DNA of 64,000 nt from Escherichia coli (GTDB lineage Bacteria > Pseudomonadota > Gammaproteobacteria > Enterobacterales > Enterobacteriaceae): assembly GCF_003790525.1 (NCBI RefSeq), contig NZ_CP033635.1. The stretch is one strand, 5' to 3'. The notes beneath the pieces are model-generated. The model made no database searches. It was not told where the DNA came from and was given only the letters and a program-made list of their open reading frames with translations. Shown here piece by piece: positions 1-11,190 of the stretch; positions within the stretch are counted from its first letter, which is position 1, and each line of letters opens with the position of its first letter. A program made the translations under genes and the position numbers.

Positions 1-1
1 A

Positions 2-142
2 GAGAGCTATGAAGATGAGATGTTCAGCATCAGATACTTTAAGAAGGGCTCCGCGCATATCACATTCAGAAAACCAGAACTGGTTGATCGGCTAAATGAC
101 ATCATTGCAAAGCGTTATCCGGGACAATTATCAGCCATCTGA
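2..142 (+). CDS. 3' end of an unidentified protein-coding gene (C-terminus ...FSIRYFKKGSAHITFRKPELVDRLNDIIAKRYPGQLSAI*); N-terminus lies outside the window
   Basis: Open frame running from the window edge to TGA at 140-142; followed by a hairpin and then ileX. Not recognised as the K-12 neighbour of ileX. Confidence 0.3.
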   Translation, partial: ESYEDEMFSIRYFKKGSAHITFRKPELVDRLNDIIAKRYPGQLSAI

Positions 143-190
143 GTCAGATGGAAAAAAGCTTACCTGACCCATTACCTGACCCAATTCAAA

Positions 191-235
191 GGAAAAAGAA
201 AAAGGGTTAGCTGGTTTATTAGCTAACCCTTTGTT
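191..235 (-). terminator. Rho-independent terminator downstream of ileX, probably bidirectional
   Basis: Perfect inverted repeat aagggttagct / agctaaccctt (202-231) with an 8-nt loop; on the minus strand it is followed by a T-rich run (plus-strand ggaaaaagaaa, 191-201). Confidence 0.55.
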
Positions 236-240
236 GTGTA

Positions 241-316
241 TGGTGGCCCCTGTTGGGTTTGAACCAACGACCAAGCGATTATGAGTCGCCTGCTCTAACC
301 ACTGAGCTAAGGGGCC
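241..316 (-). tRNA. ileX: tRNA-Ile2 (anticodon CAU, lysidine-type)
   Basis: Minus-strand sequence ggccccttagctcagtggttagagcaggcgactCATaatcgc...ggggccacca: 76 nt, cloverleaf-compatible, anticodon loop cuCAUaa, encoded 3' CCA. Position next to mug/rpoD matches ileX. Confidence 0.85.
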
Positions 317-440
317 ATGGTAGCGGATTATAAAGTAACTCCGTGTCGCAATCCAGCCATTACCGCGCGCCTGCTGTTTTTATAAACAATGTATTTTCAA
401 TCCGTTATACTTTTCCTGGTGATGTTAGAAAGGAGTAAAT

Positions 441-947
441 ATGGTTGAGGATATTTTGGCTCCAGGGTTACGGGTCGTGTTTTGCGGTATCAACCCTGGG
501 CTTTCATCCGCCGGGACTGGTTTTCCCTTTGCTCATCCGGCAAATCGCTTCTGGAAGGTGATATATCAGGCCGGGTTTACCGACCGTCAGTTGAAGCCGC
601 AGGAGGCACAGCATCTGCTGGATTATCGTTGTGGCGTCACCAAACTGGTAGACCGTCCAACGGTGCAAGCCAATGAAGTTTCAAAGCAGGAGCTGCACGC
701 AGGCGGGCGTAAGCTAATTGAAAAAATAGAAGATTATCAGCCGCAGGCGTTGGCGATTCTGGGCAAACAAGCATATGAACAGGGATTCAGCCAGCGCGGT
801 GCACAGTGGGGGAAACAAACGCTCACCATTGGTTCGACGCAGATTTGGGTGCTGCCAAATCCCAGCGGTTTAAGTCGCGTTTCACTGGAGAAACTGGTTG
901 AAGCGTATCGCGAGCTGGACCAGGCGCTGGTAGTGCGTGGCTTGTGA
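441..947 (+). CDS. mug: G/U mismatch-specific DNA glycosylase
   Basis: 168-aa [23 protein letters not shown]... recognised as Mug; AGGAG Shine-Dalgarno 7 nt upstream. Confidence 0.95.
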
Positions 948-1003
948 AGTACAGTGTAACGAAGTTATGAGCGGGCCAGGCACCGCTCCTCACCGCTACT
1001 GGC

Positions 1004-10257: not shown

Positions 10258-11190
10258 ATGCTGAATAGCTGGCCTTTAGCCAAAGATTTGCAGGTACTGG
10301 TAGAAATCGTCCACAGCGGGAGTTTTAGCGCCGCAGCGGCGACGCTTGGGCAGACGCCTGCATTTGTCACCAAGCGGATCCAAATCCTTGAAAATACGCT
10401 GGCAACAACGCTGCTGAACCGCTCCGCTCGCGGCGTGGCGCTGACTGAAAGTGGCCAACGTTGTTACGAGCATGCGCTGGAAATCCTCACCCAATATCAG
10501 CGACTGGTCGATGACGTCACGCAAATCAAAACGCGCCCGGAGGGGATGATTCGTATTGGTTGCAGTTTTGGTTTTGGGCGCAGCCATATTGCGCCAGCCA
10601 TTACCGAACTGATGCGCAATTATCCTGAGTTACAGGTGCATTTTGAATTGTTCGATCGGCAAATTGATTTAGTGCAGGATAATATTGATCTGGATATTCG
10701 TATTAATGACGAAATTCCTGATTATTATATTGCGCATCTGTTAACGAAAAATAAAAGAATATTATGCGCAGCACCTGAGTATCTGCAAAAATATCCGCAG
10801 CCACAATCCTTACAGGAATTAAGTCGTCATGATTGTCTGGTGACCAAAGAGCGCGATATGACCCACGGAATATGGGAGTTGGGGAACGGTCAGGAGAAAA
10901 AATCGGTGAAGGTAAGCGGGCATCTTTCCTCCAATAGCGGCGAGATAGTGTTGCAATGGGCGCTGGAGGGCAAAGGGATTATGTTGCGTTCCGAGTGGGA
11001 TGTGTTGCCGTTTCTGGAGAGTGGCAAACTGGTGCGAGTATTGCCGGAGTATGCACAAAGCGCCAATATCTGGGCTGTTTACCGGGAGCCGCTCTATCGC
11101 AGCATGAAATTACGTGTCTGCGTGGAATTTCTGGCGGCATGGTGCCAGCAACGGCTGGGCAAGCCCGACGAAGGCTATCAGGTCATGTAA
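10258..11190 (+). CDS. ttdR: LysR-family transcriptional activator of ttdAB
   Basis: 310-aa ORF with an N-terminal LysR HTH; divergent from ttdA. Confidence 0.85.

Follow-up and report, generated by a model that had tools for sequence, protein, structure and literature searches.

The first 287 bp of the window, by which we mean the whole 64-kb (64,000-nucleotide) stretch of Escherichia coli DNA analyzed here, are very probably the tRNA-proximal end of a CP4-type integrative island that was inserted in ileX by site-specific recombination. For annotation, positions 1 to 287 would thus be an island end (att site), and ileX a rebuilt hybrid tRNA gene rather than core backbone. The features concerned are collected in Table 1.

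Table 1. Features identified at the start of the window
Feature	Positions	Strand	Basis and remarks
DUF4942 gene, final 46 codons and stop	1-142	+	Pfam PF13708, E = 2.5e-14 (fragment); RefSeq annotation of identical DNA
Tandem 12-bp repeat TTACCTGACCCA x2, candidate arm-type sites	160-183	+	Repeat search and conservation
Island-borne terminator hairpin for the rebuilt ileX	201-232	-	12-nt arms, 100% complementary; minus-strand stem followed by TTCTTTTTCC
ileX, complete hybrid tRNA-Ile2 (CAU)	241-316	-	ARAGORN; Rfam, 72 bits
Island-derived 3' part of ileX, att repeat, tRNA positions 30-76	241-287	-	Alignments with the second copy
Block identical in both repeat copies, tRNA positions 30-49	268-287	-	20 bp; alignment of the copies
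Native chromosomal 5' part of ileX, tRNA positions 1-29	288-316	-	Identical to K-12 and SMS-3-5

A DUF4942 gene end and ileX at the start of the window

The plus-strand reading frame that is open at the window edge runs for 46 codons to a stop codon at positions 140-142. The 46-residue fragment matched profile positions 151-189 of the 190 positions in the Pfam DUF4942 model, which makes it the C-terminus of such a protein. The complete gene, present in the closely related genome of isolate CS5L, encodes 281 amino acids (PF13708, E = 7.6e-69), and DUF4942 is the usual final gene in CP4-type E. coli islands. The K-12 gene convergent with ileX is nfeF (yqjH), which stops 53 bp from the tRNA; the gene at window positions 1-142 is not nfeF/yqjH.

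ARAGORN detected a single tRNA gene in the window, on the minus strand with the anticodon CAU. The program labeled it Met, a label given to any CAU anticodon. The Rfam tRNA model scored 72 bits over positions 244-316. Since all bases from 288 to 316 (the 5' 29 nt) are identical to those of K-12 ileX, the overall identity to that gene is 72/76 and the RefSeq label on identical DNA is tRNA-Ile, we identified the gene as ileX, encoding the lysidine-dependent tRNA-Ile2. A 47-aa minus-strand open reading frame (131-274) and promoter-like hits at 127-154 and 383-411 were regarded as chance occurrences.

These results agree with the original prediction in placing the 3' end of tRNA-Ile2 at position 241, facing the low-coordinate side, and in recognizing that the gene ending at 142 was not the K-12 neighbor of ileX. 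An island on the 3' side of ileX had also been anticipated, and the repeat and integrase gene described below bear this out; the expectation that the island begins just outside the window did not hold, however, as its last 240-287 bases lie inside.

Organization of the island in the closest relatives

Window positions 1-1000 are 100% identical to two complete genomes, those of the chicken isolates CS5L and EC17CM2. Over 25 kb, the scores of both genomes against the window were consistent with one mismatch, and direct comparison with CS5L located one SNP in 21 kb, at position 10381. The window ends at position 1, and the integrase end of the island is known from close relatives only, neither of which is identical to the window. 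In these relatives, the DNA to the left of position 1 is the island, whose far end has an intact integrase gene adjoining nfeF. The original prediction had suggested looking for an integrase and for a direct repeat of the ileX 3' end; the repeat turned up as well, with nfeF on one side and the integrase gene on the other.

In CS5L, the att repeat copies stand 67,256 bp apart. The island of EC17CM2 spans ~49 kb, has both ends as in CS5L and carries partly different cargo; it encodes the same integrase protein (WP_047928884.1). A third strain with the same ileX junction, Z1323HEC0067, carries genes for a LifA-like toxin and Cah as cargo instead. Thus, the island ends are conserved, and the cargo between them is mosaic and strain-dependent.

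In CS5L, the genes before DUF4942 encode DUF957, DUF5983, CbtA/YeeU, DUF987, RadC, antirestriction, DUF932 and GTPase proteins, and CP4-type genes occupy the 20 kb to the left of position 1. The terminal module (GTPase, DUF932, antirestriction, RadC, DUF987 and YeeU/CbtA) is present in the RefSeq annotation of CS5L, EC17CM2 and Z1323HEC0067, and its GTPase was confirmed by Pfam. Farther left in CS5L lie dynamin/RdcB/patatin genes and a type I restriction-modification (R-M) system, and the cargo further includes a DMSO-reductase-like operon, genes for raffinose/sucrose and galactan utilization, and many IS elements. At the far end, the gene row reads YfjJ-like, YfjI, AlpA-family, two hypothetical genes for which a Pfam search returned no match, and a 438-aa tyrosine integrase; the intact integrase gene is followed by nfeF-nfeR-aer, the normal K-12 neighborhood.

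Beside the type I R-M system, the genes for a GTPase, a dynamin-family protein, an RdcB-family protein and a patatin-like phospholipase stand in a row (CS5L L001, 6986-12441), and the island of EC17CM2 additionally carries genes for McrBC and a phosphoethanolamine transferase. These genes are possibly defense or resistance cargo.

Attachment repeats and the crossover interval

The second copy of the repeat, at L002 2723-2769 in CS5L, is 47 bp long, is identical to the window copy at 43/47 positions and has a K-12-type T arm. Reading from the nfeF stop codon toward the integrase gene, the native ileX terminator comes first, followed by TGGTGGCCCCTGCTGGACTTGAACCAGCGACCAAGCGATTATGAGTC, which corresponds to K-12-type tRNA positions 76 down to 30; the tRNA similarity of this fragment stops beyond position 30. 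The native 3' 47 nt of ileX therefore stand 197 bp from the integrase start codon, 49-67 kb away beside nfeF.

The two copies differ at window positions 253, 257, 258 and 267, equivalent to tRNA positions 64, 60, 59 and 50. In the T stem, the 50:64 difference is compensatory, turning a C-G pair into a U-A pair; the other two differences, at 59 and 60, fall within the T loop. Because ileX has the island-type T arm and the copy beside nfeF the native one, and because homology ends at 287, the crossover lies within the block that is identical in the two copies. This block contains the anticodon loop (279-285), including the anticodon (281-283). By analogy with other tRNA-targeting integrases, strand exchange most likely occurred in the anticodon loop itself. 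A natural T-arm polymorphism was thus sufficient to map the crossover to tRNA positions 30-49, with no experiment needed.

SMS-3-5 and seven other genomes share the backbone of the window over ~24.8 kb (positions 228 to 25,000) and are free of the island; the "100.0%" match recorded for SMS-3-5 and others from position 228 is a rounded value. In all eight genomes, ileX stands directly beside nfeF and has a K-12-type T arm, constituting a precise empty site, and the empty-site flank of this group is identical to the nfeF-side flank in CS5L. To judge from these alignments, the SMS-3-5 group and CS5L are a clean before-and-after pair. The idea that the island-type T arm was native to the lineage of the window was refuted by direct alignment, which gave a K-12-type T arm in SMS-3-5.

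Terminator and recurrence of the hybrid tRNA gene

Because the island supplies the 3' 47 nt together with a terminator, ileX is still a complete tRNA gene. On the tRNA strand, a T-rich run follows the island-borne hairpin, which may in addition act as the plus-strand terminator of the DUF4942 gene. The native hairpin, AAAGGCTGACGA/TCGTCAGCCTTT, has been replaced at ileX and retained beside nfeF.

When one genome per species was scanned for exact matches, the island-type 47-mer was found at 62 loci in ~50 Enterobacterales species, from genera that include Kluyvera, Kosakonia, Pluralibacter, Atlantibacter, Edwardsiella, Dickeya and Lonsdalea. At 54 of these 62 loci, the identity extends through the 29-nt 5' half and hence covers all 76 nt, and most of these 54 loci have a mug homologue adjoining the tRNA. 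The presence of the same 76-nt gene in many genera provides strong indirect evidence that the hybrid ileX is functional, and it suggests that the att copy of the island was shaped in hosts with an identical tRNA-Ile2 gene.

Comparison of the island terminator (190-240) with the ileX-nfeF spacer of K-12 (L003, 3175-3227) revealed shared AAAGAAAAAGG and CCTTT flanks, a similarity beyond what a hairpin requires. The terminator copies in other genera share a GAGAAATCGTC loop. The att arm of the island may have been derived from an ileX locus including its downstream terminator.

The integrase and its neighbors

The integrase (WP_047928884.1), whose sequence is identical in three strains, has an Arm-DNA-bind_3 domain at residues 5-97 (PF13356, E = 1.4e-14) and a Phage_integrase catalytic domain (PF00589, E = 1.4e-10); its match to Phage_int_M, the central (core-binding) domain, was weak, at 23.5 bits, below the Pfam cut-off of 27. 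R269, K296, R367, H390 and Y400 are invariant when the protein is aligned with IntA and the IntB remnant of K-12 and with two homologues. The histidine of the HxxR motif is represented by Arg364 throughout the lineage of this integrase; being conserved within the lineage, this substitution is probably tolerated.

The protein is only distantly related to the integrases of K-12, with 24% identity to IntA, 21% to IntB and ~24% to IntF (the catalytic part alone). Its score against the NCBIfam model PRK09692 was 79.8 bits, compared with a cut-off of 434, and it is not an ortholog of IntA or IntF. On these alignments, we place the integrase in a separate lineage within the P4-type family. The 75-aa AlpA-family protein matched Phage_AlpA (PF05930, E = 4e-13). 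YfjI (DUF3987), encoded near the integrase gene, matched PF13148 (E = 5e-85) and is 43% identical to YfjI of K-12 CP4-57. No NCBIfam equivalog was found for the integrase, AlpA, YfjI or the Gp2-like protein.

Tandem repeats as candidate arm-type sites

A second tandem pair of TTACCTGACCCA lies 47-70 bp upstream of the integrase start codon. When up to one mismatch was allowed, only four copies of TTACCTGACCCA were found in 91 kb, where 0.25 and 0.10 were expected by chance. In a reconstructed attP, the TTACCTGACCCA pairs would flank the core in the same orientation.

Around the integrase-side pair, the sequence drifts in Enterobacter sp. Bisph1, Escherichia sp. ESNIH1 and Kluyvera ascorbata, but the pair itself is conserved. 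As in CS5L, these three genomes have the integrase gene (85% identical) 197 bp from a tRNA fragment that lacks the 5' part. On the tRNA side, the order of tRNA 3' half, hairpin and GGGTCAGGTAA repeat is shared by the window and eight other taxa; the GGGTCAGGTAA repeat is in tandem in the window and five taxa, and one complete copy is present in Pluralibacter, Citrobacter and Kluyvera sichuanensis. Chimaeribacter coloradensis has an integrase with 57% identity, encoded 189 bp from the tRNA fragment, and its tandem motif is different, reading TTACATCACCCA/CTACATCACCTG in the tRNA-side arm and TTACGTCACCTG/CTACATCACCCA in the integrase-side arm. Within a genome, the arm motif is the same at both ends, and it differs between integrase lineages.

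The TTACCTGACCCA repeat is probably an arm-type binding site. Because the motif changes with the integrase lineage and matches at both ends, its binder would be a protein encoded by the island, most likely through the N-terminal domain of the integrase; AlpA/Xis or a host factor could be the binder instead. Arm repeats that change with the integrase lineage offer a ready-made hypothesis for how these integrases recognize their arm sites.

Other loci bear short tandem repeats of other sequence. In Pseudocitrobacter, Edwardsiella, Kosakonia, Kluyvera and Atlantibacter (L012, L020, L053, L055 and L066), a tRNA-Ile2 3' end is accompanied by a CAAGG...CCTT hairpin and by such repeats, with the sequences CCGGGGATAT, TAGGATACC and CAGGATATT. 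This arrangement suggests sister island lineages at tRNA-Ile2 with other arm-site specificities.

Strain ET761 (NZ_CP100914.1; L074, 3980-4076) carries two islands in tandem. Downstream of the DUF4942 gene of one island come 21 bp and TTACCTGACCCA x2, joined without a gap to the integrase gene of the other; the hairpin and tRNA core are missing from this junction, as are 128 bp of the integrase-side arm. This structure fits a deletion through recombination between two 24-bp arm-repeat pairs.

Model of integration and alternative explanations

Under the proposed mechanism, the circular form of the island would carry an attP in which a copy of tRNA-Ile2 positions 30-76 precedes a terminator of the island's own, and the P4-type tyrosine integrase of the island would recombine this attP with chromosomal ileX. 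Strands would be exchanged within tRNA positions 30-49, leaving a gene composed of the native 5' 29 nt, the island 3' 47 nt and the island terminator; the native 3' 47 nt and native terminator would be displaced to the nfeF side. The tandem TTACCTGACCCA pairs in both att arms would likely be bridged to the core by the N-terminal domain of the integrase, and the AlpA-family gene product would likely serve as the excision factor.

Integration of this kind might have been followed by decay, such that the island at ileX is now an immobile remnant spread in E. coli only vertically or through homologous recombination in its flanks, which we regard as possible but rather doubtful. The cargo is rich in IS elements, group II introns and pseudogenes; at the annotation level, the 49-67 kb hold no relaxase, coupling protein or type IV secretion genes, and no phage-packaging genes are annotated; in ET761, two islands have become joined at the arm repeats and the core is gone; and a literature search combining ileX with excision found no relevant study. 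Immobility is harder to reconcile with the intact integrase open reading frame, whose product is the same in three strains, and with the presence of AlpA. Both att copies and both arm pairs are intact as well, near-identical 25-kb flank backbones occur with and without the island, and the integrase and att module recurs across several genera.

A broader proposal is that the ileX-specific integrase and att module (the integrase with Arg for the HxxR His, the tandem TTACCTGACCCA and the tRNA 3' half with its terminator) is still active and acts as an Enterobacterales-wide docking platform that swaps cargos, from LEE, tellurite resistance and LAA to sugar utilization and defense, with sister arm-site specificities represented by TAGGATACC, CAGGATATT, CCGGGGATAT and TACATCACC. 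Judged on sequence comparison, this proposal is quite possible, if still short of probable.

The remaining explanations fare far worse. That the DNA on the DUF4942 side is ancestral backbone deleted in K-12 and most strains, with no insertion at ileX, is almost certainly wrong: it accounts for the bare strain difference at the locus and nothing more, and it is already contradicted by the duplicated tRNA 3' half flanking a region with an integrase at one end, by the hybrid tRNA with a T arm foreign to E. coli, by the precise empty junction in 91% of genomes and by cargo that differs among strains behind the same ends. It is extremely unlikely that the element is a prophage at tRNA-Ile2, such as one related to phage 186; phage 186 is listed as integrating at ileY/ileX, its attB (PMC3448106), but no capsid, tail, terminase or lysis genes are annotated in the 49-67 kb, and the gene set (AlpA, YfjI, GTPase, DUF932, antirestriction, RadC, YeeU/CbtA and DUF4942) is of the CP4-57/CP4-6 type. 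We give next to no credence to a coincidental position beside ileX reached by IS-mediated or homologous recombination, since, despite the many IS elements within the island, its boundaries fall exactly at the ends of the 47-bp tRNA repeat and not at IS ends, and the 197-bp spacing between the integrase gene and the tRNA fragment is the same in other genera.

Comparison with known elements

The site-specific integration of an island, which we favor, has several known parallels. With catalytic and arm-binding domains in its integrase, a direct repeat accompanying an intact tRNA and a precise empty site, the element fits the class of tRNA-integrated islands that have a P4-type integrase. A P4-like satellite, an ICE and a 186-type prophage were each rejected on annotated gene content.

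In CP4-6 of K-12, at thrW, an intact tRNA likewise adjoins the end with toxin/antitoxin, RadC, antirestriction, DUF932 and GTPase genes, and the integrase gene is distal with its 5' end outward; CP4-6 differs in its tRNA, in its integrase (IntF, ~24% identical over the catalytic part) and in having no terminal DUF4942 gene. CP4-57 of K-12, at ssrA, shares the module of int, AlpA, YfjI and YfjJ-like genes (YfjI being 43% identical), the P4-type arm-binding integrase family and an end with a YeeU/CbtA-type toxin, whereas its integrase gene adjoins the target gene and IntA is only 24% identical. The AlpA proteins have weak BLAST similarity (31% over 29 aa), and both match PF05930.

Satellite phage P4 at leuX is the prototype of the P4-type integrase family, whose members have an N-terminal arm-binding domain. 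Its attP contains the 3' part of the tRNA gene between repeated arm sites, and the tRNA is regenerated upon integration. The island resembles P4 in each of these respects: an arm-binding tyrosine integrase, a reconstructed attP with a tRNA 3' part and repeated candidate arm sites, and a regenerated tRNA. Unlike P4, it spans 49-67 kb, uses another tRNA and has no annotated capsid-redirecting or regulatory genes, with no Psu, Sid or Delta genes among the annotated products of the CS5L and EC17CM2 islands; the P4-like IntB remnant of K-12 is 21% identical to the island integrase. Phage 186, of the P2 family, has the same target tRNA species but is a complete temperate phage, whereas the island has no annotated phage structural genes.

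Insertion at ileX is nothing unusual in E. coli and has been documented before. The tellurite-resistance island TRI-2 occupies ileX with 12-bp direct repeats in O145:H28 (RM13514) and O145:H25 strains (PMC9144400), LEE lies at ileX in O156:H8 aEPEC (PMC5359238), LAA modules have been found there (PMC5539235, PMC7545054) and an integrative element at ileX has been described in O145:H28 (PMC7067040). These islands are similar to the present one in inserting downstream of or within ileX and in being large and mosaic with flanking direct repeats, and the integrative element is likewise defined by an integrase; the likeness is one of architecture. In contrast to LEE or tellurite-resistance genes, the cargo of CS5L and EC17CM2 is metabolic or defensive (galactan, raffinose/sucrose, DMSO-reductase-like, type I R-M and McrBC). 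The published repeats are 12-bp direct repeats, whereas here a 47-bp tRNA repeat is accompanied by separate 12-bp arm repeats. The island is thus a further example of a tRNA-targeted element at a site also used by LEE, tellurite-resistance and LAA modules; added here are the 47-bp repeat, the crossover interval at tRNA positions 30-49, the terminator supplied by the island and the arm repeats that change with the integrase lineage.

Distribution in E. coli and additional observations

An intact K-12-type ileX-nfeF junction, corresponding to the empty site and counted with a 401-nt K-12 junction query, was found in 4,955 of 5,426 complete E. coli genomes (91%). The DUF4942-ileX-mug junction of the window was present in 361 out of 5,426 genomes, and the island integrase gene in 455 out of 5,426. 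A 161-nt chimeric query matched 5,128 at a coverage of at least 80%, an inflated number in that the alignments run through the partly similar island terminator.

The best match to the chimeric query, and the sole one above 97.5% identity among the matches listed, was strain MS20654 (NZ_CP082083.1, 3537769-3538529; tRNA at 369-444 of L073). This strain has an empty ileX-nfeF site with the native terminator, and its tRNA gene carries all four island-type T-arm bases. The allele looks like the footprint of a lost island; a plain reversal of the crossover would not have left it, and either the island would have to have been lost through recombination within the terminal 12 bp or the allele brought in from elsewhere.

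Farther into the window, a gene encoding a 187-aa NADAR-family protein (PF08719, E = 1e-53) lies at 1004-1567 on the minus strand, between mug and rpoD, where K-12 has only a 78-bp spacer. It was found in 62 of the 5,426 complete E. coli genomes, SMS-3-5 included, always at one chromosomal place, and seems to be a small insertion of restricted lineage distribution that lacks an obvious mobility gene. The single SNP relative to CS5L falls in ttdR (10258-11190, plus strand): the window has a C at position 10381 and encodes an intact 310-aa TtdR, and CS5L has a T. A CAG-to-TAG change would account for the internal stop in ttdR of CS5L, which RefSeq lists as a pseudogene.
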